From positions 1 through 19,837 of the forward strand of contig CAYMVZ010000042.1 in assembly GCA_964394335.1 (NCBI GenBank): a stretch of 19,837 nucleotides of DNA. Reading direction: 5' to 3'. This DNA comes from an uncultured Nitrospinota bacterium. GTDB lineage: Bacteria; Nitrospinota; Nitrospinia; CAJXCL01. The notes under the pieces were generated by a model, which saw only the letters and a program-made list of their open reading frames with translations, had not been told where the DNA came from and did not search any database. Both the position numbers and the translations under genes were made by a program. Below, piece after piece: positions 84 through 19,837 of the stretch (positions within the stretch are counted from its first letter, which is position 1; every line of letters starts with the position of its first letter).

Positions 84-150
84 TGAGTCCTCCCCGCAGC
101 AAGCTGCGACTGCGCTTGCTAACACTTTCAAATAGTAGGATAATATTAAT

Positions 151-5836: not shown

Positions 5837-7249
5837 ATGACACCAAAGGAGGTATTGGCATTTGCGAAAAAAAACAAGGCTGTCATGCTTGACGTCAGAT
5901 TTATGGATTTTCTTGGGTTATGGCAGCACTTCTCAGTCCCTGTTTCTGAATTGGATGAAAGTGTTTTTGAGGATGGATACGGATTTGACGGTTCCAGCAT
6001 CAGAGGCTGGCAGCCCATTCATGCCAGTGACATGCTGGTTATTCCTGATCCGGCTACAGCAGTTATGGATCCCTTTACACAGCACCCGACCCTTACCATG
6101 ATCTGCAATATTGTAGACCCAATCACAAAAGAAAAATACTCCAGGGATCCAAGAAATATTTCACAGAAGGCTGAAGCTTATCTGAAATCCACCGGGATCG
6201 CGGATACTGCTTATTTTGGTCCTGAGGCAGAGTTTTTTATTTTTGATGATATAAGATTCGACTCGGCAGAGCAGCACAGCTTTTATCATATAGATTCTGT
6301 AGAAGCACAGTGGAACACAGGCCGTGAGGAAAACCCGAACCTGGGGTATAAACCAAGATATAAAGAAGGTTACTTCCCTTGCCCTCCTTTTGATACTTTG
6401 CAGGATATCAGGACGGAAATGGTCCTGGTTATGGAACAGATCGGAATGAGCGTGGAGTGTCAGCATCACGAGGTTGCAACAGCCGGTCAGGGAGAAATAG
6501 ATATGAAATTCTCCCCCCTGACAAAAATGGGGGACAACCTAATGTGGTATAAACACATTGTTAAAAACGTAGCGAAAAGACATAATAAAACAGTTACATT
6601 TATGCCAAAGCCGATCTGGAATGACAATGGCTCAGGTATGCACACCCACCAGAGTCTTTGGAAAGGGAACAAACCTCTTTTTGCCGGGAGCAAATACGGT
6701 GGGTTAAGTGATACTGCTTTACATTATATCGGTGGTGTCTTAAAACATGCTTCGGCTTTATGTGCTTTTAGCAATCCAACAACCAACTCATACAAAAGGT
6801 TGGTACCTGGTTTTGAAGCGCCGGTTAACCTGGCTTATTCCAGCCGAAACAGGAGCGCCTGCGTAAGAATACCGATGTATTCTCCAAGTCCAAAAGCCAA
6901 GAGGGCGGAATTGAGATTTCCAGATCCTTCCTGTAATGGATATATGGCCTTTTCCGCTATGCTTATGGCCGGGCTGGACGGAATTGAAAATAAAATCGAT
7001 CCGGGAGATCCATTGGATAAAGATATTTACGCGCTCGGACCTGAAGAATTGGCCGCTGTTCCAAAAGTTCCGGGATCCTTAGAAGAAGCGCTGGTTGCCC
7101 TGGAAAAAGATAATGAATTTTTGTTGAAGGGAGATGTCTTTACCCAGGACGCAATCGACATGTGGCTGGAATATAAAAGGGAAAATGAAATTAATGCGAT
7201 GGCATTAAGACCACATCCTTTTGAATTTGAGCTTTATTATGATGTCTAA
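5837..7249 (+). CDS. glnA: glutamine synthetase type I
   Basis: 470 aa with an AGGAGGG RBS 9 nt upstream. The GS-I motifs [18 protein letters not shown] and [15 protein letters not shown] are present. A conserved Tyr in [11 protein letters not shown] corresponds to the adenylylation site of E. coli GS. Confidence 0.93.
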
Positions 7250-7277
7250 TTTAAACGCTTAATAATAAAAAGTCAAA

Positions 7278-7310
7278 AGCCCCCTGATGTTCAGGGGGCT
7301 TTTTTTGTTT
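7278..7310 (+). terminator. rho-independent terminator after glnA
   Basis: A 10-bp GC-rich stem: agccccctga (7278-7287), loop tgt, then tcagggggct (7291-7300), followed by TTTTTTGTTTTT. Confidence 0.85.
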
Positions 7311-7472
7311 TTGTACGGTAATATTAGATCAGATTCGCCCCGTTAATCGTGACTTTAAATATTTTTTTAGCTTCTCGATTACTTCGAGATTACTCAAGAT
7401 AGAGAAAATTGAATAATGAAGTTATCTTGAAGCAATCGTGAAACAAAAATGAAGTCCGAGTTTTTATTCTGG

Positions 7473-7497
7473 ATGCCCGATGGAAGCACTCGGGCAT
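7473..7497 (+). repeat. REP-like hairpin, variant member of the dispersed family (atgcccga-N9-tcgggcat)
   Basis: atgcccga tggaagcac tcgggcat has the same architecture as the attcccga-taggaacac-tcgggaat copies elsewhere in the window. Confidence 0.6.
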
Positions 7498-7504
7498 GAC
7501 AAAA

Positions 7505-7625
7505 AAGTGATGCGTTGAGGTATGGTAAAAAAGGGGGAACACTCTGGTATGGCAAAAGAGCGTTGCGCTAGGGCATGAACAAAAGAGTGGTGCGTTAGAG
7601 TATGGTAAAAGAGCGTTGCATTCCC
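7505..7625 (+). repeat. degenerate tandem repeats of about 27 bp (4-5 units)
   Basis: The units are gtgatgcgttgaggtatggtaaaaaag, ctctggtatggcaaaagagcgttgcg, ggcatgaacaaaagagtggtgcgttag and agtatggtaaaagagcgttgca. All share the (g)gtatggtaaaag and agcgttgc(g/a) cores. Confidence 0.5.
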
Positions 7626-7743
7626 GCTTGCTCCCGGCATGTCATTCTCGCATGCTTTAAGCGGGAATCCAGACATAAAACGAGTAAATGTCATCACTTC
7701 AAAGATAAGGGTATGTCAAATTAAAAATGAAATAGAAGAGAAG

Positions 7744-7786
7744 GCCCTATCCTTCCCCATGTTAAAAAATCAGAGAAGGATAGGGC
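7744..7786 (-). terminator. candidate terminator for the minus-strand porin-like gene
   Basis: A 12-bp inverted repeat, gccctatccttc (7744-7755) and gaaggatagggc (7775-7786), with a 19-nt loop. On the minus strand it lies 34 nt after the stop and is followed by a U-rich tract. Confidence 0.4.
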
Positions 7787-7819
7787 TTGAGAGGAGGATC
7801 ATCCGTATCTTGCTATAAT

Positions 7820-8842
7820 TTAAAACACGTAGGTCATTTCAAAAGCAAAAGTATCATTATTATCAGTCACACTGCCATCTGCCTTTGTAAAAACATTTTG
7901 ATCGGAAGAATCGTGGCGGTATTCAATAAGCGCTCCGAACCCTTCACCAATTACAAATGTGGGAGCAACGGTAATGGCCTGCTGGGTATTATTGGCTGTT
8001 CCTCCTAATCGAGCGCCATCCTCATCGTCAAAGTAATCATACCTGACTGTAATTCCACCCCAATCCGCGTAGTCATAATGGCCCATCACGAGAAAACCAA
8101 ACCAGTCCGCATCTGTACCGGTTGTTGAGGCCAGGTCCTCATTTCCAAAGTTAAATTCCAATCCGACTGTTAGTTTAGGAATCATGGTTATAGTTCCATC
8201 GATATCAAAAACCGTCATGTTTTCACCGGCTACTGCGCTGTCATCTCCTGAAATGGCTGAAAAACCCAGATTAATATCTTTCATAGGGGTTATTCCGATC
8301 CTGCCACCAATCGTCTTGTTTTTGTTCGTGTCCGGATTATTGTCCCACCCATTTACAACATAAGCGCTGATATCAATCATTTCGCCAAGAGCTCCGGATG
8401 CCATAAGTCCTGTTAAGTTTGTCGGCAAACCACTGTTAAATACCAGGGCGTGAGAAAATTGATACATGTCAGGAGCGTCCAAGAGTTCAAATCCTATAGG
8501 AGCGTTAAATTTTCCAAATGTAAATGTAACCCCACTTCCGACAGGTGCTGTCAGGGTTAAATAGCCCTGTTCTATGATAGCATCGGCTGTTTCCGTTCCT
8601 CCTCCATTTGGAGTGTGGTTTAAATCAAACCGCAAAGACGCCCAGTCTTTGATTTCTTTCGTAATGTCAATTTCAACCTGGTCCAATCCGAATGTATTTG
8701 TATCCGCGTTATCATCTACAACATAACTGGAATCCACAAAGCCGCTCATATCAAATCCTAACGCCTCGGCGGCATAAGCTTTACCATAGCTTATTGAAAA
8801 CATAAAAATTGCTACAACTAAACCACTAATTAATTTCTTCAT
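7820..8842 (-). CDS. outer-membrane beta-barrel, porin-like protein
   Basis: 340 aa with a signal peptide cleavable after AYA (MKKLISGLVVAIFMFSISYGKAYA-AE). Amphipathic beta-strand patterning and a C-terminal aromatic residue (EMTYVF) are typical of OM beta-barrels. A GGAGG RBS lies 6 nt upstream on the minus strand. Confidence 0.6.
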   Translation of the reverse strand: MKKLISGLVVAIFMFSISYGKAYAAEALGFDMSGFVDSSYVVDDNADTNTFGLDQVEIDITKEIKDWASLRFDLNHTPNGGGTETADAIIEQGYLTLTAPVGSGVTFTFGKFNAPIGFELLDAPDMYQFSHALVFNSGLPTNLTGLMASGALGEMIDISAYVVNGWDNNPDTNKNKTIGGRIGITPMKDINLGFSAISGDDSAVAGENMTVFDIDGTITMIPKLTVGLEFNFGNEDLASTTGTDADWFGFLVMGHYDYADWGGITVRYDYFDDEDGARLGGTANNTQQAITVAPTFVIGEGFGALIEYRHDSSDQNVFTKADGSVTDNNDTFAFEMTYVF

Positions 8843-9431
8843 TCACGTCCTCCTTCTCAAATTTAATTACTAAATTATTGACCTGTTTAAGAATCTTAAC
8901 TGAAAATACTTTCCTATCACCCCCTTTTATAGATATTTTAAACTAACTACTTTAGATTATTAAGAAATCGATTTTTGTAAACAGTAATTGAAAAATAAGC
9001 AGTAATTATAAAATAAAGATTAAGAGATTACAACTATAGTTTTAATTTTATCGTTCCTGGATTTTGCTTCGCCCCGCTGAGCGTGGCTTCGCAGATTCGC
9101 CCATAAAAAAGTACCTGCGAAGACAACTTGATATTATAACCAAAGCTCATTTAAATGCAACTTATATACCAGGTTTTTTAAAATAGTTGTCAGAATTTAT
9201 TTTATTGATAATAAAGGATTTAAATCTTGAAATAATGTTTGACCAGTTTTAAAAGCAGGCGATTCATTGTTTGCTGCTACAAATTTAAGCATGGAAAACA
9301 ATTTCTGCTTAATACTTATGCAAATCCAAAAAGAACTTTCTATTTACAAAAATTAACCTGTGGTCCCGGAGAAAACATTTCCTGCATACAATTCAAACAT
9401 TTGAAAAACATTTTTCACTCCTTGTTTTTTT

Positions 9432-9447
9432 TGGCACGACAATTGTA
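9432..9447 (+). promoter_or_regulatory. sigma-54 (-24/-12) promoter for the ANTAR response-regulator gene
   Basis: tTGGCACGacaaTTGTA gives TGGCACG as a perfect -24 element (9432-9438) and TTGT at the -12 position, with correct 10-nt GG-to-G spacing. It is about 50 nt upstream of the TTG start. An adjacent 7-bp inverted repeat tgaaaaa-ca-tttttca lies at 9402-9417. Confidence 0.55.
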
Positions 9448-9498
9448 ATTATTTTAGAAGCTGGTTTGTTTTGCGAAAATTAATATAAAGGAGTTAAA

Positions 9499-10083
9499 TT
9501 GAAAACAATTAAAACTACACGTTTACTTATTGCAGATGATCAGAGTTTTTCAAGAGATGCTTTAAAAGACGCATTAATTGAAAAAGGTTTTGATATAGCG
9601 GGGGAAGCAGCTACCGGTAAAGAGGCAATTAAATTAAATAAAAAATTGAAGCCTGATTTGATTTTTATGGACGTAAAAATGCCGGAATTAAACGGGATCG
9701 AAGCATCTCATGAGATTAACTCTAAAAACCCTGTTCCGATAATACTTTTAACTGTAAAAGATGACCGAAGTACAATAGAAAGAGCCAAGTCAGCGGGAGT
9801 AATGGCATATCTTGTTAAACCTTTTAATAAAAAAGAATTGGTTCCCAATATAGAGATTGCCATTAAACGTTTTCATGAGTTTAAAAAAGTGAAAAATGAG
9901 AATGCTGATTTAAAAGCAAAACTAAATGCAAGAAAACTCATAGAAAAGGCAAAAGGAATTCTCATGGAAAAGCATAATATTAATGAACAGGAGGCATTTA
10001 GAATGGTTCAAAAGGCTGCAATGGATAAACATACTTCAATGAAAGAGATTGCAGAGAGCATAATTATGACTGCTGATTTATAG
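9499..10083 (+). CDS. response regulator with receiver domain plus ANTAR RNA-binding antiterminator domain (AmiR/NasT-like)
   Basis: 194 aa with a TTG start and an AAGGAG RBS 5 nt upstream. The receiver domain is intact: DD (IADDQ), phospho-Asp (FMDVKMP), Thr (LLTV) and Lys (LVKPF) are present. The C-terminal KLIEKAKGILMEKHNINEQEAFRMVQKAAMDKHTSMKEIAESII matches the ANTAR helical domain. Confidence 0.85.
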   Translation: MKTIKTTRLLIADDQSFSRDALKDALIEKGFDIAGEAATGKEAIKLNKKLKPDLIFMDVKMPELNGIEASHEINSKNPVPIILLTVKDDRSTIERAKSAGVMAYLVKPFNKKELVPNIEIAIKRFHEFKKVKNENADLKAKLNARKLIEKAKGILMEKHNINEQEAFRMVQKAAMDKHTSMKEIAESIIMTADL

Positions 10084-10124
10084 TACACATACTGTTCAAA
10101 GAAGAGCAGGAATAGAGAAAAAGC

Positions 10125-10180
10125 AAAGGCGCTTTTTAATTGGATCCACTTAAGTGGAGCAATGAAAGCGCCTTTTTTTT
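10125..10180 (+). terminator. strong two-tier intrinsic terminator between the ANTAR regulator gene and amt2
   Basis: The outer stem pairs aaaggcgcttt (10125-10135) with aaagcgccttt (10165-10175). It encloses an inner perfect palindrome tccacttaagtgga (10145-10158) and is followed by T8 (10173-10180). Confidence 0.75.
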
Positions 10181-10185
10181 AGTGT

Positions 10186-10417
10186 TCAGGAATGACATGT
10201 CGGGAATGCCCGTATAGTAAGACGTATGCATTTCAAAATGACAACGCATATGTATGCCAGATTGATATTTTGCACTGTTTTGTCATTCCCAACTTGATTG
10301 GGAATCCAGATAAAAGAATTCCTGGATTCTAACTAAATCTTGTCCTCAACCTGGATTCCCGCTAAGTGCATGCGGGAATGACATGTGGGGAACATGCGGG
10401 ACTGATATGTCAGGAGC
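10186..10417 (+). repeat. cluster of REP/MITE-like repeats (GGGAATGACATGT cores, gtcattccc/gggaatcc inverted units, 67-bp unit at 10351-10417)
   Basis: Contains caggaatgacatgtcgggaatgcccg, gtcattcccaacttgattgggaat, gaatccag...ctggattc, attcccgc-taagtgcat-gcgggaat, and gcgggaatgacatgtgggga followed by acatgcgggactgatatgtcagga. The 67-bp unit recurs at 16641-16709 at about 84% identity. Confidence 0.7.
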
Positions 10418-10442
10418 TTCAATTATTTAGGTCATTAAAAAA

Positions 10443-11744
10443 ATGAAAATTTTATTTTTCTTAATACTGAGTGTTTTTCTCATTTCAGATGATAGTTTTG
10501 CCGCAAGACTTCTTACGTCTGAGGACGTTCAGAGGAATCTCAATATAGTATGGATCATTTTTGCGGCGATCCTTATTTTTTTGATGAAGGCAGGATTCGC
10601 TATGGTGGAGATTGGGTTTACCCGTTCTAAAAACGCGGTAAATGCCCTCATGAAAAATTTTGTTGATTTCGCCATAAGCGCTGTAACGTTTTGGGCAATC
10701 GGTTTTGGATTTATGTTCGGCACAACCAATGGGATATTCGGCACAGATGGGTTTTATCTCCAGGACTACATAAAAAATCTTGATCCGTGGCTTTTCGCTT
10801 TTTGGATGTTCCAGGTCGTTTTTGTTTCTTCAACGGCTGCGATTGTTTCCGGAGCTATGGCCGAACGTACCCGGTTTGTTGCCAGTCTAATGTTTACTCT
10901 ACTGCTGACTGCTTTTATTTACCCGATTTTTGGAAGCTGGGTTTGGGGCGGACTCTATCATGGTAGCGGCTGGTTGGAAAGACTGGGATTTATTGATTTT
11001 GCCGGCTCTACTGTGATCCATGCCATAGGAGGTTGGGCAGGACTTGCTGGAACAATCGTTCTCGGACCCAGGCTGGGAAAATTCAGTGAGAAAGGAGTGC
11101 TAAAACCTATTTTAGGTCATAACCTCCCTCTCGCAGCTCTTGGGACTTTGATTTTGTGGTTTGGCTGGTATGGGTTTAATGCGGGAAACACGTTGGAAGG
11201 CAATGAAAAAATAGGGTTAATTATCATCAACACCACACTTGGTGGAGCGGCCGGAGCACTTGCAGGGATGACAACTATATGGCTTATTGCAGGAAAACCG
11301 GATGCAGGCATGACTCTTAATGGAGCATTAGCCGGGCTGGTAGGAATTACTGCCGGTTGCGTTTATGTGTCGCCTTTCTGGGCAATTGTGATAGGCCTTG
11401 TTGCCGGTTGTCTTGTAGTCTTTTCCGTTAAGTTTTTCGACAGTCTGAAAATTGATGATCCTGTTGGCGCTATCTCTGTGCATGGGGTTTGCGGTGTATG
11501 GGGAACTTTAGCGGTTGGTCTCTTTAAAACCGGAGAATTATTTAATTTAAAAAATCTTAGCGTACAATTTTTAGGTTCTATAGTAGCTTTTTTTTGGTCA
11601 TTTTTTGTGGCTTATGCGTTTTTTAAATTCATCGATTATTTAGTGGGTCTTAGGGTTTCTGCTGAGGAAGAGTTTCGAGGGTTGGACTATTCTGAACATG
11701 CGGCAGGAGCTTACCCGGATTTTCACGTTACCTCTATTAACTGA
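10443..11744 (+). CDS. amt: ammonium transporter, Amt family (second, AT-rich paralogue)
   Basis: 433 aa with a signal peptide (MKILFFLILSVFLISDDSFA) and the Amt signature DFAGSTVIHAIGGWAGL. It has about 11 TM segments. Its codon usage is AT-rich, unlike amtB at 4262-5563. Confidence 0.88.
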   Translation: MKILFFLILSVFLISDDSFAARLLTSEDVQRNLNIVWIIFAAILIFLMKAGFAMVEIGFTRSKNAVNALMKNFVDFAISAVTFWAIGFGFMFGTTNGIFGTDGFYLQDYIKNLDPWLFAFWMFQVVFVSSTAAIVSGAMAERTRFVASLMFTLLLTAFIYPIFGSWVWGGLYHGSGWLERLGFIDFAGSTVIHAIGGWAGLAGTIVLGPRLGKFSEKGVLKPILGHNLPLAALGTLILWFGWYGFNAGNTLEGNEKIGLIIINTTLGGAAGALAGMTTIWLIAGKPDAGMTLNGALAGLVGITAGCVYVSPFWAIVIGLVAGCLVVFSVKFFDSLKIDDPVGAISVHGVCGVWGTLAVGLFKTGELFNLKNLSVQFLGSIVAFFWSFFVAYAFFKFIDYLVGLRVSAEEEFRGLDYSEHAAGAYPDFHVTSIN

Positions 11745-11764
11745 AGAATTTTTTGGATATCTAA

Positions 11765-12307
11765 ATGAAATCTTTGCCGGAAGAAGATTCAGTTCGCAGG
11801 CTGCCGAGGCCTGCCAATAAGAAGCAGATTATTATTGCTGTCCTCGCAACGGCTTTTGTTTTGATTATTTTTTATAGCTTTACGTCAGTCTCTTATTATT
11901 ATTCATCGACAAATTATTTTTGCTCGACTCAATGTCATGAAATGGTGCAGCCCTATCAGGAGTATCTTTTGTCCAGCCATTATGACAGCAGGAAAGGTGT
12001 TGTAGCGGATTGCGCCGACTGTCATTTGCCCCCCGGGTTAGTAGATAAGTGGTTTGTAAAAACAAAACAGGGAGTCCATGACTCTCTGGTTCATTTTTTT
12101 GGTGATCCGGAAAATCTGGATCATAATGCGCTTAAAATTTCTGCAAGAAAAAATATTCATCCCGGCGCTTGTATGAAGTGTCATAAAAACCTGTTTCCTT
12201 CGGACTTGCCCCGGGGCGGTTTCAAGGCTCATAAAGCCTTTGAAAATCAGGAAGCTAATAATTGTGTGGATTGCCATGTAAACCTGGTGCATGTTTCAGC
12301 CGGTTAA
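11765..12307 (+). CDS. NapC/NirT/NrfH-family membrane-anchored tetrahaem cytochrome c (quinol dehydrogenase-like)
   Basis: 180 aa with an N-terminal TM anchor (IIIAVLATAFVLIIFYSF). It has four haem-binding motifs: CSTQCHEM (CX3CH, non-canonical), CADCH, CMKCH and CVDCH. It starts 21 nt after the amt2 stop, so the two are probably co-transcribed. Confidence 0.82.
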   Translation: MKSLPEEDSVRRLPRPANKKQIIIAVLATAFVLIIFYSFTSVSYYYSSTNYFCSTQCHEMVQPYQEYLLSSHYDSRKGVVADCADCHLPPGLVDKWFVKTKQGVHDSLVHFFGDPENLDHNALKISARKNIHPGACMKCHKNLFPSDLPRGGFKAHKAFENQEANNCVDCHVNLVHVSAG

Positions 12308-12360
12308 ATGAAAATTGCGGAGTTCAGACTAAGGAAGGCGGATTGTTGCTAACAATGTCC

Positions 12361-12510
12361 GTAAGTTCTCAATAAGTCGGGGTAAGCCAAGGTCCATAAG
12401 TTTGTCATTCCCGAATGTTCCCCGATTAGAGAGTTCGAGGACAAGCTTTATCGGGAATCCAGGAATCAGCTTGACTACTAGATTCCCGATAGGAACGCTC
12501 GGGAATGACA
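12361..12510 (+). repeat. composite REP/MITE-like element with a nested 75-bp insertion (family shared with 15122-15200)
   Basis: gtaagttctcaataagtcggggtaagccaaggtccataagtttgtcattcccga, then an insert at 12415-12489 ending in attcccga, then taggaacgctcgggaatgaca. Removing the insert reconstitutes the hairpin gtcattcccga-N9-tcgggaatgac seen intact at 15169-15199. Confidence 0.75.
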
Positions 12511-12635
12511 AGATAGGGTATAGCCAATAGTGACCTGGCCCTGAGAACAGGTTTTTTGTTTTATAATAAAATTATACTTTACACAGAAGATTCCCAGCAG
12601 CTTGCTTCGGGGAGCTTCAATTGGAGGTTATTTTA

Positions 12636-13934
12636 ATGGAAAACTCTTGTTATAAAAAAAGTAATTTTGCGGGAAGTCCTTCGCAATATTCAATTCGCAA
12701 TATTCAATTCTCAATTTTGCCTGCATTATTCCTCTGCTTATTAGCCTCCATTCTGTTTTCACAAGTGGCTCATGCGGCAAGAACAGAGGGAGAAAGGGAA
12801 ATTAGCAAAAAATGTATCCTTTGTCATCAGGAAATTTCCCCTGGGATCGTGAACGACTGGGAAAAAAGTAATCATGCGAGAAGCGACATTACTTGCATAG
12901 ACTGTCACCGGGCCGACCCGACAGATGCGGATGCATGGAAGCACGAAGGTACTTATATTTCCACTATCGTCAGCCCCAGGGATTGTTCCAAATGCCATCC
13001 CAAAGCAGTGAAAGAGTTTGTTGATTCCAAACATTCCGGAGCCGCTACCTTTTTAAAAGCTGAAGCAGGGGATAGGCATAAAGATAATATTTTGGCATAT
13101 ACAATTGAGGGAGCTGAAGCTGCTGTTGTGGGGTGCGAGAAATGCCACGGTAATGTTGTAAAAGTCAAAAACGGAAAATTTGAGCCAGGCTCCTGGCCGA
13201 ACGGTGGAATTGGCAGGGTAAACCCTGATGGAAGCCGTGGTTCCTGCACCGCCTGTCATACCCGGCATGTCTTTTCCGTTGCTGAGGCCAGAAAGCCGGA
13301 GACTTGCGGTACCTGCCACATGGGGCCCGACCACCCGCATATAGAGATATATCTGGAGTCCAAGCATGGGGTCATTTATTCCAGTGAAAAAGAGAAGTGG
13401 GATTTTGACATTCCGGCAAATTCCTGGGATGTCAAACATTTTCGAGCTCCTACCTGCGCGACATGCCATATGTCCGGCATTGGCAATTTGGAGCCGACTC
13501 ACGATGTTGGAAAGCGTCTTTCATGGGTCTTAAGGTCTCCCCTTTCCATTAAAACCAACGGCTGGCAGGTCAAAAGAGAAGAAATGAAAAAAGTCTGCCT
13601 TTCCTGTCATTCAGATGGATGGGCGGAGGGATATTATTTTCAACTTGATAATGCGATAGCTCTTTATAATGAAGAATATTATAAGCCGGTTAGAAAGGCA
13701 CTGGATGAATTATACGCACTTGGCATATTAACGAAGCAATCATTTGACGAAGAAATTGAGTTCACATGGTTTGAATATTGGCACCATGAAGGGAGAAGAG
13801 CAAGGATGGGTGCAGCCATGATGGGGCCGGATTTTGCCCAGTGGCATGGTTTTTATGAACTGGCTAAAAACCGCCTTAAACTTTTGAATGAGATAAAAAA
13901 AATGAAAAACAAAAAATTGAACTATAAGGAATAA
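12636..13934 (+). CDS. periplasmic octahaem cytochrome c (HAO/OTR-like multihaem family), putative nitrite/hydroxylamine oxidoreductase
   Basis: Eight CXXCH motifs: CILCH, CIDCH, CSKCH, CEKCH, CTACH, CGTCH, CATCH and CLSCH. A signal peptide is present (hydrophobic core ILPALFLCLLASILF, cleavage near AHA-A). The preferred start is the ATG at 12636 with GGAGG 8 nt upstream; the ORF track's TTG at 12621 has no RBS. Confidence 0.8.
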   Translation: MENSCYKKSNFAGSPSQYSIRNIQFSILPALFLCLLASILFSQVAHAARTEGEREISKKCILCHQEISPGIVNDWEKSNHARSDITCIDCHRADPTDADAWKHEGTYISTIVSPRDCSKCHPKAVKEFVDSKHSGAATFLKAEAGDRHKDNILAYTIEGAEAAVVGCEKCHGNVVKVKNGKFEPGSWPNGGIGRVNPDGSRGSCTACHTRHVFSVAEARKPETCGTCHMGPDHPHIEIYLESKHGVIYSSEKEKWDFDIPANSWDVKHFRAPTCATCHMSGIGNLEPTHDVGKRLSWVLRSPLSIKTNGWQVKREEMKKVCLSCHSDGWAEGYYFQLDNAIALYNEEYYKPVRKALDELYALGILTKQSFDEEIEFTWFEYWHHEGRRARMGAAMMGPDFAQWHGFYELAKNRLKLLNEIKKMKNKKLNYKE

Positions 13935-13937
13935 CCT

Positions 13938-15047
13938 ATGACACCGGCACTAAACAGTGAAGAAGCTTACAAAAATGTTTTGAGAGGGTTGTGGAACAAT
14001 CGCAGCGGTACTTATGAAGAATGGGAAACTCTCATTAAGGAACTCCCTCATTATGGAATGACTGAAGAGAAAGCGCGGGCCTTGGAACCAGATGTTAAAG
14101 AATCTCTCGGCGTTGTCGTTCCCTGGTCTATATTCGATAAACCCGGGTTTGAAACTTCAAAAGAAAAGATTGCAAAACGCTTCCTTTTCTTTTCGCTGAG
14201 CTTTTGTTTTTTTTTAGTAATGCTCTGGATTTACCAGAGAGTTGAACCGAAGGAAACTCAGGCCATGCACCCGGTGTTTGCTGAATCCTCTTTAAAGGTA
14301 GAAAAGCAAAGAAGTAATAAAACATTTTTGCCCTTTGACAAAATGGTGGAAATTAAAGGAGGAAACTTTCTGATGGGAAGCAGTGATGGCGACTTCGATG
14401 AAGAGCCGATTCACAGAGTTCATTTACTTCCTTTCCAATTAGCTGGATATGAGGTGACCTACAGTCAATTCCAGGAATTTATTAAAGAAAATCCTCATTG
14501 GGAAAAAGGAAAACCTGGAATGAACGAAGTGGATTTGAATTACCTGAAAGACTGGAATGGAACAGACTTCCCGAAAGGCAGGGAAAACTTCCCTGTTGTT
14601 TATGTAAGCTGGTTTGCTGCTTCAGCCTATGCGTACTGGTTTGGAAGGCGGCTGCCCACAGAATCAGAATGGGAGTATGCCGCAAGAGGAGGATTGAGGG
14701 GAATGCCATATCCCTGGGGAAAAGTATCCGAATTCTGGATCGCAAACATTAAAACAGAGGGTTTAATAAATATGCCCAAACCTGTCGGCAATTACAGCAT
14801 GAACGGGTTTAGAATTTTTGACATGGCGGGAAACGTCAGAGAATGGACAGCCGATGGTTATTCCCTTTATAATCCAGCAGAACAAAGAAATCCTCAAATG
14901 ACTACGAATCAAAGGTATAAAGTTGTCAGGGGAGGGTCCTGGGAAACTTTTGGGAGGGACTCCAGGGTATCGAAAAGGTGGAGGGAACGCCCAAATCATT
15001 GCGGGCCTGATATAGGTTTTCGCGTTGCAACCGATATTTATAGCTGA
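13938..15047 (+). CDS. FGE-sulfatase/SUMF1-domain membrane protein (NirV-like)
   Basis: 369 aa. The ATG is 3 nt after the octahaem stop, with the AAGGA RBS overlapping that stop, indicating translational coupling. It has an N-terminal cytoplasmic region, one TM helix (FLFFSLSFCFFLVMLWIY), and a C-terminal FGE/SUMF1 domain (GGNFLMGS...PVVYVSWFAASAYAYWFGRRLPTESEWEYAARGG...GNVREW...VVRGGSW...GFRVA). Confidence 0.8.
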   Translation: MTPALNSEEAYKNVLRGLWNNRSGTYEEWETLIKELPHYGMTEEKARALEPDVKESLGVVVPWSIFDKPGFETSKEKIAKRFLFFSLSFCFFLVMLWIYQRVEPKETQAMHPVFAESSLKVEKQRSNKTFLPFDKMVEIKGGNFLMGSSDGDFDEEPIHRVHLLPFQLAGYEVTYSQFQEFIKENPHWEKGKPGMNEVDLNYLKDWNGTDFPKGRENFPVVYVSWFAASAYAYWFGRRLPTESEWEYAARGGLRGMPYPWGKVSEFWIANIKTEGLINMPKPVGNYSMNGFRIFDMAGNVREWTADGYSLYNPAEQRNPQMTTNQRYKVVRGGSWETFGRDSRVSKRWRERPNHCGPDIGFRVATDIYS

Positions 15048-15121
15048 TTTTCGGGTTAGATCAGGGGATTGAAAAAATATTAGACTGGATAACAGGATGG
15101 ACATGATTAAATCCTTTTTAT

Positions 15122-15200
15122 GTAAGTTCTCAATAACAAAGTCGGGGTAAGCCAGGGTCCCTATGTTTGTCATTCCCGATAGGAACACTCGGGAATGACA
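15122..15200 (+). repeat. REP/MITE-like element, intact copy (gtaagttctcaataa...gtcattcccga-taggaacac-tcgggaatgac)
   Basis: 79 bp, near-identical to the flanks of the 12361-12510 copy but without the 75-bp insert. It contains a perfect 11-bp-stem hairpin at 15169-15199. Confidence 0.75.
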
Positions 15201-15228
15201 GGAAGGGTGATCTCCTCAACTCTGTATA

Positions 15229-15272
15229 AGGCGCTGTAAAAAGCAAAAACTTAACAGCGCCTAAACTTTTTG
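15229..15272 (+). terminator. candidate intrinsic terminator ending the amt2-cytochrome-FGE transcription unit
   Basis: A 9-bp GC-rich stem: aggcgctgt (15229-15237) paired with acagcgcct (15254-15262), with a 16-nt A-rich loop, followed by aaaCTTTTT. Confidence 0.45.
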
Positions 15273-15325
15273 AGATGTTACAACTATGTAATAAAAATTA
15301 TTAATTTTTTTTGGAGGAAATAATA

Positions 15326-16549
15326 ATGGATACAGATGCTCAGGATTTAAAAAAAGAGAATGAAATGAGAAGGGAGAATGAGATTCAAAAAATGGAACCG
15401 GGAAAAAAGGGAAAATTTAAAATAATCGTGGTGGCTGTTCTTCTTGCTGCAGGAATATATTATTCATTCGGAAACAACGATGCGGAAGAATATTCCGTGG
15501 TCCAGAAATGGCCGTCTGGAAGCCTGGATGTTGTCATGAAACCCGGTTTGTTCTGGGCAGGACCTTTTTCAAATGTTACCAGATTCAAGATATCGAGTGT
15601 TGTTAAGTTTTCCAGGAGTAAAGTGGGAGAAGAGACTATTGACCAATCGATCTTTGTTCGGTTTAAAGATAACGGAACAGCTAATATTAGAGGCATTGTA
15701 AAATATCTTCTTCCTACTGATCCTGAAAAAATCCGTATGATAAAAAATGAACTGGGCAATAATGACGTTATTTCTAATAAAGTGCTTAAAAACTTCGTCA
15801 ACCAGGTCCTTGTTAGAACAGCTTCTAATTACACAAGCAGCGAATCTATACGGGATCGCTCTGCTTTTTTTAACGATGTCAATGATGGATTAAAAAGTGG
15901 GAAGGGTCCTACTGGCCGCTACTCTATGCAGATACTGGCATTCACTCTAAACAAAATAATTTACGACCAGCAGTCTCAAGCCAAATTTGACGAACAACGC
16001 CTTCTGGAACAGCAGAAAAATAACGCTAAGATTCAGGCTGAAAAAGCACAGCAGGATGCTGTTACGGCAAAAGCCGAAGGAGAAAAACTGATAGCGCTAA
16101 CAAAGGCAAGAGAAGAAAATCTTAAGTTTGAGGCCACGGTCAGGGCGGAAAAGGCTGCGGAGATTGCCAGGATCAAAGCACAGGAAGAGAAGGCAGTCGC
16201 TATTACTGGCGCTCAAAAGGAGTTTGATGTTGCTAAACTGGAACTTGAAAAGGCAAAGCTGGAAAAAGAAGTTGTACTTTTAAAGGCTGAGGGCAGACGG
16301 AGCGCTGCTTTGAAAGAAGCGGAAGGAAGAAAGGCCCTGGCAGCAGCAGACAACTCACTCGAACTCAGGCTCAAGACTCAAAAAGAGATGATGATCGGTA
16401 TGGCCCAGGCATTAAAAGATGTGAAAGTGCCCTCCGCAATAATTGGGGCGTCTGGGAAATCGTCCGGGAATCCTGTCCTCGACCTGTTTTTAATGAACCA
16501 GATAAAATCGCTAACAGATATTAACTCCACGGGAGAAACCGGGAAATAA
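15326..16549 (+). CDS. SPFH/band-7 (flotillin/HflKC-like) membrane protein with extended coiled-coil
   Basis: Preferred start is the ATG at 15326 with GGAGG 8 nt upstream; the ORF track's TTG at 15311 is less likely. It has an N-terminal TM (FKIIVVAVLLAAGIYYSF), an SPFH-like domain, and a long Ala/Glu/Lys-rich coiled-coil segment (AEKAQQDAVTAKAEGEKLIALTKAREEN...). Confidence 0.65.
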   Translation: MDTDAQDLKKENEMRRENEIQKMEPGKKGKFKIIVVAVLLAAGIYYSFGNNDAEEYSVVQKWPSGSLDVVMKPGLFWAGPFSNVTRFKISSVVKFSRSKVGEETIDQSIFVRFKDNGTANIRGIVKYLLPTDPEKIRMIKNELGNNDVISNKVLKNFVNQVLVRTASNYTSSESIRDRSAFFNDVNDGLKSGKGPTGRYSMQILAFTLNKIIYDQQSQAKFDEQRLLEQQKNNAKIQAEKAQQDAVTAKAEGEKLIALTKAREENLKFEATVRAEKAAEIARIKAQEEKAVAITGAQKEFDVAKLELEKAKLEKEVVLLKAEGRRSAALKEAEGRKALAAADNSLELRLKTQKEMMIGMAQALKDVKVPSAIIGASGKSSGNPVLDLFLMNQIKSLTDINSTGETGK

Positions 16550-16570
16550 TCTGGCAGTTTCTAAACAAGC

Positions 16571-16748
16571 CGGGAATGACCGTCTTCCTCCTCTGTCATG
16601 CCCGAGTGTTCCTATCGGGCATCTATATTCACAACTTGGTCTGGATTCCCGATAAATGCATTCTGGAATGACATGTGGGGAGCATTCGGGATTGACATGC
16701 TGGGAGTACGGGAATGACATGTTCCTGGGGCGGGAGTGATATTGTGGA
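16571..16748 (+). repeat. cluster of REP/MITE-like repeats (inverted-orientation hairpin 16598-16622; 67-bp unit 16641-16709; GGGAATGACATGT cores)
   Basis: cgggaatgac...gtcatgcccg, then atgcccga-gtgttccta-tcgggcat (the reverse-complement orientation of the family hairpin), then ctggattcccgataaatgcattctggaatgacatgtggggagcattcgggattgacatgctgggagtac, then gggaatgacatgttcctggggcggg. Confidence 0.7.
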
Positions 16749-16994
16749 ACAAAAAGTGCTAGGCAGTTACTGGCACTTATAAATAGCACAGGTTGGTGTA
16801 AATCGATGGTTCTATATTATTGGAAGTGTTTGGCACTTACATTCACCGGGAAAACAGTTTTTTATCTGCGGTAATCTGTACTACAAATTTGTAAAATTGT
16901 GTTTTTTTAGCACAATTTTTATTATCAGGATTGGGCGGTAGCCCATTTGGTTGTGGCCTTTGCCACTCTGTGTCATTCACTGTCTTTATCGTGG

Positions 16995-19837
16995 TTATAG
17001 TTTACTTTTCCCAAAACCCCCTCCTCCGGGTGTTTTAATGATAATGGAGTCACCTTTTTTTACATCTTTAACCACTCTGTGAGGCAGTTCCACAATCTCT
17101 CCGTTTGTTTTTTTCAAAAGATTGACCCCTTTTTTTCCCGGCTTACCGTCTGCCAGGCCATAGGGCGCATAGACCCTTCGTTCGGATATTATAGAAATTT
17201 TAGCAGGTTTTAAAAACTTTAATTCTCTAATTGTTCCGTCTCCTCCCGCAAAACGACCTTTGCCGCCCGAGCCCTTTCTTAAAACAAATTTCTCAAGCCT
17301 TACTCCGGGATGCCTCATTTCCAATATTTCCGGATCTGTGATCCTGGTGTTTGTCATATGTACCTGTATACCGGAAGTACCGGGACAGCCGTCTGAGGCG
17401 CCGGAACCACCGGCAATGGTTTCATAATAGGGAGTCTCTCCTTCAACTTGAAAGAGCAGGTTATTCATTGTGCCCTGTGATGCAGCCGCTGCTTTGAGCG
17501 CTCCCAGGAGGACATCCGTTATCCTCTGCGAAGTTTCCACATTTCCTGATGCAACCGGCAAAGGGTAAACAGGACTCAGGATGGAGTCATCAGGAATGAC
17601 TATCCTAATTGGCTGCAGGCATCCGCTGTTTAATGGAATGTCCGAATCTGTTAAAGCCCTGAGAACATAAAGTACCGCGGAGCGTGTGACAGATATGGGG
17701 GTATTTAGATTATCATTTGAGTGCCCCGGCCCTGTGCCTGTAAAATCTATTTCAGCGTTGACTGTTTTCGGCGGATTAATCCCCCCCTTGATAACAACCT
17801 TTACTTTTAATAGGGTTCCATCATCAAGATGGTCTTCAAAGGCTGCTTCAAAAGGGTCGCCTGTTTTAAGGAATTGAGCGAGAGCCTGTTTTACCGAATA
17901 TGCAGCATTCTCCTTAATAAATCCCATATAATCACGAGCAGTATCCCATCCGTAAAGAGCGATGGTTTTTTTGAGTTCATGTACTCCTTTATTACAGGAA
18001 GCTATCTGGGCTTTAAGATCGGATATTCGCTCTTCCATGTTTCTTACCGGGTGTTTATGGGTTGATAGGATTTGCCTCAGTTCTTCTTCTCTTAATATGC
18101 CGTCTCGCACAAGAAGAAACCCGTCTATTAAGATGCCCTCTTCATCAATATGTTCCGCCGCGGGAGGCATAGACCCGGGAGTTATTCCGCCAATGTCCGC
18201 ATGGTGCCCTCTTGCAACGGTAAAGAAAACAATCTCATCGTTTTGGGAAAAGACCGGGCATACCACGTTCAAATCCGGCAGATGAGACCCTCCATGATAA
18301 GGGTTGTTGGAAAGGTAAATATCGCCTTGCTTGATACTCCCCTTTTCGCTTTTAATAACTGCTTTTACCGTGTCCGCCATTGAACCAAGGTGTACAGGCA
18401 TGTGGGGCGCGTTTGCAACAAGGTCTCCTGTGCCGTCAAAGACAGCGCAGGAGAAATCCAGCCTTTCTTTGATGTTCACCGAGTGGGCTGTGTTTCTAAG
18501 GGTATGCCCCATTTCAGTAGCAATACCCATAAAAAGATTGTTAAAAACCTCAAGCAAAACCGGGTCAGGTTTACCATTTTTATTGGGGTTGTTACTCTCG
18601 CTTCCAGGCTCCTGCCTGATAAGGGGGAGCATTTTTTTTACAACAATAACTCCATTTTGTTCTGCTTCAGCATCAAACCCGGGGTCAATTACTAAAGTAG
18701 AATACCTGTCAACAACAAAAGCCGGTCCTTTAACTTTTGTTTTTGGTGAGATGTTTTCTCTCAAAGACAGAGGCGCATCTACAAAACCATTGGAATAATA
18801 AATTTTCCGAATTTTCTCAGGAATACTCTTGTTCCTTAGTTTCAGTTCGGGAACAATATGCGATGTATTAAAAAAATCTCCTTTTTCTTTAGCCTCTATT
18901 CGCAAATTAACCGCTTCAACAGGTTTATTTTCAGGGTAGAAACCAAAGATCCTTTCATGCTGCTTTTTGAATGATTCGAGCACATCTTCATAGTTAGAAC
19001 ATTCTACAGTTAAAAAAGCACCAGTCCCTTCATGGCGCAAATCAATTTCTCTATTTATTAAAAAGTCTTCTTTTTTATTATTTTTTTCTTTGATTAATCT
19101 TTCTTCCATTTTATCGAACGAAGATAAAAGTTTTTTATGATTTTCTCTATTGTAAATGCAGAGCACGCTCATACTTGATTTTTTTGTTGGTTTCGAAAGT
19201 CCTATGCCGTATGCGGACATGACGCCGCCTAATGGATGAAAGATTACTTTCCCCATTCCAAGCAGGGACGCCACTTCACAGGCGTGCTGTCCACCGGCTC
19301 CACCGAAACAGACCAGGGCATAATCCCGGACATCATAACCTTTTGAGACGGATATCTCCTTTATCGCCATTGCCATCTTTTCATTGGCAATCCTGATAAA
19401 GCCAAGTGCTGCTTGCCGGGGAGAGTAATTTCGTAGAGTTCCAATATTTATTTTTTCCGTAAGGCGCTGAAATTTCTCTTTAACAATATCCTCATTCAGG
19501 GCTGAGAGCCTGTCTGAGCCAAAGGTTTGAGGGAAATGCTCCGGCGAGATCCTGCCGGTCAGTAAATTCGCGTCTGTAATTGTAAGCGGCCCTCCAAATC
19601 CATAACAGGCAGGTCCAGGGTTCGCGCCTGCGGATTCAGGCCCTACTCTCATCCTTTGCCCGTCGAACCACAGGACCGAACCGCCGCCCGCTGCCACTGT
19701 TGAAATGTTTAACATCTCCACCTGAAACTCAATGCCGCCGATGATCTTTTCATAAACTTTTCCCAGTTTTCCTTTGTATCGAGACACGTCGGTTGAAGTT
19801 CCTCCCATATCAAATCCGACAGCGCCCTTGAGACCCA
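16995..19837 (-). CDS. fused hydantoinase A/B (HyuA-HyuB) family protein, 5-oxoprolinase/N-methylhydantoinase-like; 5' end lies outside the window
   Basis: The hydantoinase-A motif DMGGTSTDV is present, followed by a HyuB-like C-terminal region. The minus-strand frame stays open to the window edge (...[17 protein letters not shown]), so the ATG at 19808 is internal and the gene is partial. Confidence 0.85.

Follow-up and report, generated by a model that had tools for sequence, protein, structure and literature searches.

The nitrogen locus on contig CAYMVZ010000042.1 of an uncultured Nitrospinota bacterium (assembly GCA_964394335.1) carries a family of short intergenic hairpins which, in all likelihood, belong to the Ssn-related motifs (SRM), a class of very widespread intergenic repeats that includes the NTS/dRS3 repeat of Neisseria. 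The family is a further example of a class described in 2025 and not a new system. The window (the whole stretch analysed; 19,837 nt, 41% GC) contains TPR genes, a DUF420 gene, glnB, amt, glnA, a porin gene (minus strand) and a gene for an ANTAR response regulator, together with a second amt gene (amt2) and genes for a NapC/NirT tetrahaem protein, a multihaem protein, an FGE-sulfatase-like protein, an SPFH protein and a hydantoinase/oxoprolinase.

An earlier note on this DNA had described a hairpin at five intergenic sites, and it is indeed present at all of them (7473–7497, the amt2 leader at 10355–10379, 12482–12506, 15172–15196 and 16598–16622), with the last copy in the opposite orientation, as stated there. 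The copies are more numerous than those listed; with both strands read, there are nine full units and several half-unit arrays between 7469 and 16747, and the amt2 leader also carries a short-loop copy of the hairpin (10285–10305). What had been missed is that the unit is oriented, with GTCAT on its 5′ side and C-YAG on its 3′ side; it is this orientation which places the repeats in the NTS/SRM class of the Ssn GIY-YIG single-strand nucleases (PMC11893778), rather than among the repetitive extragenic palindromic (REP) sequences and bacterial interspersed mosaic elements (BIME) of the RAYT type.

Architecture and conservation of the repeat unit

The consensus unit is ~32 nt long and reads 5′-(t)GTCAT[T/G]CCCG(A/C), a 9-nt loop, (T/G)CGGG[A/C]AT and C(C/T)AG. 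The stem comprises 8 bp, built on ATTCCCG/CGGGAAT or on the compensated pair ATGCCCG/CGGGCAT, and a C lies directly 3′ of the palindrome. Both the 5′ GTCAT and a 3′ C(C/T)A(G/T) are present in eight of the nine window units, the lone exception being that at 15168–15200. The motif GGGAATGACA occurs 19 times in the window at up to one mismatch (1.39 expected; none of 200 shuffles reached 19), and the oriented unit pattern matches 10 times, compared with 0.003 expected from 300 dinucleotide shuffles.

Folded as single-stranded DNA (ssDNA), seven of the nine units are more stable than their shuffles (z −2.4 to −7.4); the interrupted unit at 12403–12462 and the degenerate unit at 16641–16673 fold no better than shuffles (z about −1). 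A pair of units arranged as an inverted doublet (12401–12512) folds at −27.7 kcal/mol, with z −7.35. The motif GGGAATGACATGT, which the earlier note had recorded at several sites, is found exactly or with one mismatch at 10188, 10374, 16664 and 16710, and proves to be the opposite-strand reading of the unit's 5′ arm together with its 5′ flank. Tandem copies with periods of 24–27 nt form half-unit arrays, and such arrays are invariably located 5′ of a full unit.

Conservation was scored on 252 non-identical units from viral, genome and metagenome loci, using search patterns that left the scored positions free. Stem position 3 is T:A in 168 units, G:C in 64, C:G in 18 and A:T in one, with a single non-pair; the occurrence of all four Watson–Crick pair types with only one non-pair indicates that the hairpin is under selection. 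The C immediately after the palindrome is kept in 246 of the 252 units (98%), and GT directly precedes CAT in 101 of 103 units from the retrieved loci.

The units avoid coding sequence, 18% of them falling within long six-frame open reading frames (ORFs), though such ORFs cover 80% of the sequence. In the window every copy is intergenic, in agreement with the earlier note, and the sole overlapping ORFs, at 14763–15188 (minus strand, 141 aa) and 16511–16789 (minus strand, 92 aa), have no Pfam match. Both ORFs extend across the repeats and are probably false translations of repeat sequence, a sort of entry that contaminates protein databases; a comparable artefactual peptide (...CHARVLLSGIQ...LDSRFRGND...) is seen among ORFs near units elsewhere.

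Relationship to the NTS and other Ssn-related motifs

About half of the dRS3 copies of Neisseria belong to a longer element with a defined orientation, NTS (CGTCATTCCCGCGMAVGCGGGAATCYRG) (Chenal et al., Nat Commun 2025, PMC11893778). NTS-like SRM are found in many bacteria, where they flank the gene of the 94-aa single-domain GIY-YIG protein SsnA (cd10448), which binds the hairpin as single-stranded DNA only, and on one strand only, and cuts a few nucleotides upstream (PMC11893778). The base most critical to binding is the C after the palindrome, whilst three upstream bases matter for cutting; in Neisseria, nicking by Ssn leads to lower integration of transforming DNA that carries NTS (PMC11893778).

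The window units share with SRM/NTS the GTCAT 5′ flank, the ATTCCCG/CGGGAAT palindrome, the C after the palindrome and the YRG that follows it. They are likewise intergenic, multi-copy and clustered, and in other genomes form SRM–gene–SRM arrangements around small single-domain GIY-YIG genes. The published SRM search pattern, HGTCWYN(0-2)YYVSBRHN(0-5)WNVSBRGN(0-2)RNCYNB (PMC11893778), is matched exactly by the units at 7640–7672 (plus strand) and 10351–10383 (minus strand), i.e. two of the nine, with 0.03 matches expected per shuffled window. The window units differ from the described SRM/NTS in occurring in tail-to-tail doublets, in having 5′ tandem half-unit arrays and in being carried by two larger composite elements.

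There is also a resemblance to dRS3 and to the Neisseria intergenic mosaic elements (NIME), which extends to the ATTCCC...GGGAAT core, the intergenic mosaics with other repeat modules and the clustering around particular genes. The dRS3 repeat itself is ATTCCC-N8-GGGAAT; the spacing is N13 in standard window units and N9 in that at 10285–10305, and they therefore lie outside the strict N8 definition. The modules which accompany the units here are unrelated to the Neisseria RS units, and no phage integration is seen at the sites. A search of the whole window against Rfam (E ≤ 1) returned no family for the repeats, its sole matches being chance ones to the glnA terminator.

The units lie downstream of the glnA, tetrahaem, FGE-like and SPFH genes and form stable hairpins, and the earlier note had suggested that they may function in RNA, as transcription terminators or as 3′-end stabilisers of mRNA; such roles have been shown for some E. 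coli REP sequences. Palindromic units would fold in RNA either way round, and one of the composite elements described below (Type I) bears a real terminator-like hairpin followed by a T-run. However, a T-run follows none of the nine units, and none was called terminator-like. A strong glnA terminator is located separately at 7275–7303, ~170 nt upstream of the first unit, and a porin terminator at 7737–7758, so the cluster at 7469–7672 sits between two convergent terminators. Moreover, conservation between phyla extends to the non-palindromic flanks and the 3′ C, neither of which an RNA hairpin barrier would need; SsnA does not bind RNA (PMC11893778). A role of the units at the RNA level is thus improbable.

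GIY-YIG genes adjacent to the units

One genome per species (185,579 species) was scanned with the window's own variant, CATKCCCGAGYGYTYCYATCGGGMAT, as the query, which returned 97 stretches from records labelled as at least 12 phylum-level groups, with the 32-nt unit almost unchanged from one to another, loop included. The record labels comprise Anaerolineae/Thermoflexales/Chloroflexia, Bacteroidota, Ignavibacteria, Kryptoniota, Elusimicrobia/Endomicrobia, Deltaproteobacteria, Gammaproteobacteria (Vibrio, Thiotrichaceae, Paraglaciecola), Betaproteobacteria (Iodobacter, Janthinobacterium), Nitrospirota, Nitrospinota, Planctomycetales, Gemmatimonadota, Spirochaetia, Synergistaceae, Binatia and Eggerthellaceae.

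A GIY-YIG ORF of 94–97 aa is present in seven of the 97 stretches (phmmer), and in six of these a unit lies within ~100 nt of the gene. In three (individual stretches are denoted by L numbers; here L094, L051 and L074) the gene is flanked on both sides by convergent units, unit(+)–gene–unit(−). Each of the four ORFs that were scanned encodes a single-domain Pfam GIY-YIG protein, the domain spanning nearly the whole protein. We estimate that, at about one such gene per genome, fewer than one of a set of 97 random 8-kb blocks would be expected to hold one.

All 239 ORFs located no more than 150 nt from at least one of the 174 units in the 97 stretches (a sample and not whole genomes) were clustered. 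The GIY-YIG family, from six genomes, is among the two largest clusters and is the only nuclease or transposase family that recurs, with no transposase family and no Y1/HUH cluster among these ORFs; the other largest cluster comprises membrane proteins which, from their sequence, we take to be NADH-dehydrogenase subunits.

These neighbours bear on a further possibility, that the units are classical REP/BIME elements spread by RAYT (REP-associated tyrosine transposase, IS200/IS605-like). Short intergenic imperfect palindromes, REPIN-like inverted doublets and mosaic clustering are features of such elements; as in REP/REPIN–RAYT systems, inverted palindrome doublets here form a long hairpin, and ssDNA would be recognised by a single-gene nuclease flanked by repeats. 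The partner differs, however, being a GIY-YIG nuclease, the sole nuclease or transposase family to recur beside the units in the 97 stretches, and not a Y1/HUH transposase. The usual tag of RAYT-type REPs is GTAG/CGTC, whereas the conserved 5′ flank here is GTCAT, and REPs are normally lineage-specific, whereas the 32-nt unit crosses phyla, near-identical in at least 12 labelled phylum-level groups. Dispersal by RAYT is therefore very improbable; the likeness to REP/BIME drawn in the earlier note stands in so far as this is a dispersed hairpin family, and fails in its class, which is the NTS/SRM class tied to Ssn GIY-YIG.

On a phage-like contig (L166), a more distant Ssn-like gene adjoins a different unit variant, GTCATTCCGAAC-TTG-GTTCGGAATC, with half-units upstream, a pairing that fits co-variation of protein and motif. 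Searches by motif regular expression and phmmer covered 38 viral stretches, L001, L002 and the window itself, and revealed no GIY-YIG gene in any of them. Among the viral contigs, IMGVR_UViG_3300028837_002970 (L008, L012, L037, L026) carries 14 units and 3300028845_000195 (L003, L013, L019) seven; on each of these phage-like contigs the units share one orientation, opposite to that of the mostly co-directional genes, and occupy successive intergenic gaps. A GIY-YIG gene was not found in the examined parts of either contig. A blastn search of a plasmid collection with the consensus unit gave no real match.

Dispersal within the marine lineage

The window derives from a marine (Tara Oceans) population, with 99–100% identical contigs in ERZ2773064 (TARA_SAMEA2619970), JGI 3300020423, ERZ27286381 and other assemblies. 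Within ~35 kb of contiguous sequence, units occur only in 7469–16747, and 10 kb on the upstream side and 5 kb on the downstream side are free of them; this confinement marks them as a local cluster, as described for Neisseria (PMC11893778).

A metagenome scan with TGTCATKCCCGAGYGTTCCTATCGGGMAT as the query returned 18 stretches (17 non-redundant) from two assemblies. They have a GC content of 0.36–0.41 and a tetranucleotide correlation to the window of 0.89–0.97, and carry the same units and composite elements, as does the metagenome-assembled genome CBDUII01 (GTDB; labelled "uncultured bacterium"). Of the genomes returned by the species-level scan, CBDUII01 is the nearest to the window in composition and shared composite elements, and a Nitrospinota metagenome-assembled genome comes second in composition, a weak hint of affiliation. 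The dispersed REP- or MITE-like family proposed in the earlier note (MITE, miniature inverted-repeat transposable element) is thereby borne out, with 17 other non-redundant loci in addition to the records labelled as at least 12 phylum-level groups.

The same scans bear on the alternative named in that note, a binding site for a locus-specific regulator, here of nitrogen genes. Within the ~35 kb, all units do fall at five intergenic sites, in the interval from glnA to the SPFH gene. However, they are dispersed over 17 unrelated loci of the lineage, for example upstream of the EF-P gene in L156 and L143, and in many phyla lie beside unrelated genes, which leaves this explanation with next to no probability. 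The idea that the neighbouring ANTAR regulator targets the hairpins of the amt2 leader was likewise rejected; regulators of this type recognise paired hairpins with hexaloops, whereas the units have 9-nt loops and occur at unrelated loci.

Comparison of relatives for presence or absence, which the earlier note had proposed, reveals a difference at one site. L142, whose FGE-like protein is the same as that of the window and whose DNA agrees with it at 99.6% of positions from 12616 onward, is without the repeat block between the tetrahaem and multihaem genes, such that the gap between these genes is 80 nt, compared with 329 nt in the window. The absent block runs from 12361 to ~12625 and holds two units (units 5 and 6, below), a Type I arm and a hairpin of a second repeat family; its left edge coincides with the start of a Type II inverted repeat at 12361. 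On the left of the site the identity of L142 to the window is no more than 84.6%, the switch being at ~12712. The difference is thus one between diverged alleles near a recombination breakpoint, and not proof of a recent insertion.

Doublets and composite elements

Many of the units in this lineage are paired. In the tail-to-tail doublet, unit(+) and unit(−) are separated by 14–15 nt; the window contains two (units 5/6 and 8/9), and doublets are present in 11 of the 18 metagenome stretches (L146, L148–L150, L154, L155, L158–L161 and, in an interrupted form, L144). Their arrangement is the same convergent one as that of the units which flank the ssn gene in L094, L051 and L074.

Doublets are carried by two kinds of composite element. 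The Type I composite (~200 nt) consists of a degenerate half-unit arm, a doublet and an arm with the terminator-like end CCTGGTCC-TGA-GGACCAGG-TTTTTT; the window has a copy at 12403–12570, in which the left unit is interrupted and the terminator degenerate. In the Type II composite (~157 nt) the doublet lies between 16-nt imperfect terminal inverted repeats, GTAAGTTCTCAATAAG and CTTTTTGAGATGTTAC, and the element is present at nine or more loci with unrelated flanks. We read 15122–15281 of the window as a Type II copy whose doublet has collapsed into one symmetric hairpin (unit 7); such a collapse would explain the odd presence of GTCAT on both sides of that unit. The collapsed form is common to L156 and L120, and other Type II copies retain the doublet.

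Nested within the right arm of the window's Type II element (15231–15262) is a 44-nt hairpin insert, GGCGCTGT...ACAGCGCC, which is also found in the L147 and L156 copies and not in those of L148, L161, L130 and L120. Together with the T-rich stretch that follows, the insert may be the terminator of the FGE-like gene. In L143 (2078 onward) the Type II element's end is the exact point at which the FGE-like locus is joined to an EF-P gene, and a Type II element likewise precedes EF-P in L156 (~5837–5992); the L143 junction is either a rearrangement through the repeat or a chimera of metagenome assembly.

The MITE-like part of the earlier note's description applies to those copies that lie within the Type II element. 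Like MITEs such as the Correia elements of Neisseria, it is short, non-coding and bounded by terminal inverted repeats, is present at many loci with unrelated flanks and varies in presence or absence among related contigs. It differs in that its cargo is an SRM doublet and that no parent transposase is known. In a rival reading, the units are passengers of ordinary MITEs, with both the Type I and the Type II composite moved by a conventional DDE transposase and the SRM-like hairpins in them being relics without a resident Ssn. Consistent with this, a perfect 8-bp direct repeat, TAATAATT, lies on both sides of the L130 copy, with near-repeats at L154 and L161; the block absent from L142 starts at the inverted repeat at 12361, and no ssn gene was found in the loci of the lineage. 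On the other hand, at most copies target-site duplications are obscure, the flanks being AT-rich and chance matches likely, and no transposase was found near any copy. Units also occur outside the composites, alone and with half-unit arrays (7469–7672 and 10185–10416), and the retention of the NTS-type flank and 3′ C at 98% fidelity suggests continuing selection or recent spread and not decay. We consider a passenger origin rather unlikely.

Several observations weigh against assigning the hairpins to SRM with a resident Ssn. Seven of the nine window units fail the published pattern; the stem type dominant in the window, which closes with A:T (CCCGA/TCGGG), is excluded by it at one position, having T where V is required, and other units fail on loop length or stem changes. 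Published Ssn biochemistry covers four homologues and short-loop variants of NTS only (PMC11893778), compared with the 9-nt loop here. The GIY-YIG proteins beside the units are placed at the Pfam level only, NCBIfam having no specific model. No ssn-like gene was found in the ~35 kb contiguous around the window (within which L162 and L164 were scanned for unit halves only), nor in the ~130 kb of the 18 lineage-like metagenome loci. Lastly, the terminal inverted repeats and possible target-site duplications of Type II would point to a conventional transposase, with the hairpins as passengers.

Proposed mechanism

If the hairpins are SRM, their behaviour may be outlined by analogy with NTS. When DNA becomes single-stranded, during replication or repair or as incoming DNA, the strand in the unit orientation would fold into the hairpin; a small single-domain GIY-YIG Ssn would bind the hairpin and its 3′ C and nick a few nucleotides 5′ of GTCAT. 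A doublet, having one unit per strand, would expose either strand to cleavage once it is single-stranded. Scars of repair or slippage may account for the half-unit arrays, which lie on the side of the cut. Spread would occur as SRM–ssn–SRM cassettes and as derivatives without the gene, which in this marine lineage would mostly be tail-to-tail doublets within the two composite elements. By the same analogy, the units of the lineage are presumably, or recently were, substrates of a resident Ssn.

A more speculative extension, which we regard as unlikely, is that gene-less doublets are mobilised in trans by Ssn, making SRM–ssn–SRM a new class of GIY-YIG-driven transposable element and a functional analogue of RAYT/REPIN. 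If so, spread of the element across phyla would explain the near-identity of the 32-nt unit in at least 12 phylum-level groups, and the half-unit arrays, always on the side cut by Ssn, could be scars of repeated cleavage and repair. The doublets, arrays, carriers and cross-phylum near-identity all bear on whether SRM–ssn–SRM is a mobile element.

The assignment to SRM places a conspicuous repeat family of an uncultured marine bacterium in a class whose protein partner was identified only in 2025, and widens the picture of that class to include a narrow 32-nt variant across phyla, REPIN-like doublets, cut-side half-unit arrays and MITE-like carriers. At the nitrogen locus the repeats are insertions and not regulatory signals, and any effect on the nitrogen genes would be a side effect of insertion, e.g. 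through the terminator-like arm between the tetrahaem and multihaem genes, where one insertion sets such a module between cytochrome genes that are just 80 nt apart in a related contig. For annotation, the repeats yield spurious ORFs and probably break metagenome assemblies. Of modest practical value, the units would offer natural substrates for probing the specificity of a new Ssn subgroup.

Units and half-unit arrays in the window

The first cluster begins with unit 1 (7469–7501, minus strand), which reads TGTCATGCCCGA-GTGCTTCCA-TCGGGCAT-CCAG on that strand; it is a G:C stem variant and folds as ssDNA at −8.6 kcal/mol (z −4.35). On its 5′ side is a degenerate half-unit array (7502–7639, minus strand) with GGGCATGAC-like starts at a period of ~26–27 nt, part of which (7549–7619) was called by Tandem Repeats Finder (TRF) with period 27 and 2.7 copies. 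The last element of the array (7617–7639) sits 5′ of unit 2 (7640–7672, plus strand; TGTCATTCTCGC-ATGCTTTAA-GCGGGAATCCAG), one of the two exact matches to the SRM pattern.

The amt2 leader contains two lone half-units (10185–10212, minus strand; AGGAATGACATGT and CGGGAATGCCCG), followed by unit 3 (10281–10309, plus strand), the short-loop variant TGTCATTCCCAA-CTTGA-TTGGGAATCCAG, of which there is an identical copy in L144 and a near-identical one in L161. Unit 4 (10351–10383, minus strand) reads TGTCATTCCCGC-ATGCACTTA-GCGGGAATCCAG on its own strand, is the other exact SRM match and folds at −8.1 kcal/mol (z −3.7); a half-unit array with a period of ~24 nt (10384–10416, minus strand) lies on its 5′ side.

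Between the tetrahaem and multihaem genes, the left arm of a Type II composite (12361–12402, plus strand) starts with the terminal inverted repeat GTAAGTTCTCAATAAG and forms the left edge of the block absent from L142. It is followed by the doublet of unit 5 (12403–12462, plus strand), whose loop is interrupted by ~27 extra nt in a form that recurs in L144, L145 and L151, and unit 6 (12478–12510, minus strand; TGTCATTCCCGA-GCGTTCCTA-TCGGGAATCTAG on that strand). The right arm of the Type I composite (12511–12570, plus strand) contains the degenerate terminator-like hairpin CCTGGCCC..AACAGGTTTTTT and is 82–87% identical over 130–173 nt to L144, L145, L151 and others.

The Type II MITE-like element (15122–15281, plus strand; 160 nt) has the terminal inverted repeats GTAAGTTCTCAATAAC and TTTTGAGATGTTAC, and shares 92.5% identity with L156 (over 160 nt) and 93% with L120 (over 102 nt). 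Within it, unit 7 (15168–15200, minus strand) has a symmetric 12-bp stem with GTCAT on both sides, and folds at −12.6 kcal/mol (z −7.4). Directly after the SPFH stop codon is a lone half-unit (16570–16581, minus strand; CCGGGAATGACC), and then the doublet of unit 8 (16594–16626, plus strand; TGTCATGCCCGA-GTGTTCCTA-TCGGGCAT-CTAT; −8.2 kcal/mol, z −4.7) and unit 9 (16641–16673, minus strand), the latter with the degenerate stem CCAGA/TCGGG (z −1.05). The half-unit array 5′ of unit 9 (16674–16747, minus strand) has a period of 24 nt and the consensus GCATTCGGGAATGACATGTGGGGA; TRF called 2.8 copies at 16658–16722.

Other repeats and variable regions

A second family of hairpin repeats, unrelated to the units and with a core resembling GAAGATTCCCnGCAGCTTGCTGCGGGGAGCTTCAAT, is present in the window at 12585–12625 (plus strand) and 86–105 (minus strand), and elsewhere in the lineage in L138 (17400–17510), L146 (5521–5540) and L156 (4625–4644 and 8307–8326). 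Its hairpins adjoin SRM blocks as well as occurring elsewhere, and one copy forms the right end of the block absent from L142.

The possibility that blocks of strain polymorphism are bounded by the repeats was suggested by segment counts and is refuted by the exact positions, 8068–8348 and 17496 onward; only the L142 breakpoint (~12712) falls within ~100 nt of a repeat block. A hypervariable or recombined patch lies in the porin gene at 8068–8348 (minus strand), where L002, L138 and L139, which elsewhere show no difference from the window over many kb, carry 28–36 substitutions in ~280 nt. L140 matches the window up to 17495, with one mismatch at 11169, and then has 94 differences in ~1 kb (17496–18561, hydantoinase gene), and L141 terminates exactly at 17495. 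This switch, away from any repeat, is either a strain-level recombination boundary or an assembly switch. Downstream of the window, L138 (16720–21110) carries genes for a UDG-like protein, a UvrD/PD-(D/E)XK helicase-nuclease and a DNA methylase on the minus strand, which may be a defence or repair island beside the repeat-rich region.

Two further repeats lie in genes. A 197-nt direct repeat (218–414 and 470–666; 84% identity, spacing 252 nt) in the gene for a 190-aa TPR protein represents TPR units duplicated within that gene. The other, TTCGCAATATTCAA, is a tandem repeat of 14 nt (12680–12716; 2.6 copies, 95% matches) and lies at the 5′ end of the multihaem ORF as read from a TTG start; the gene calls on related contigs begin later, giving a protein of 432 aa.

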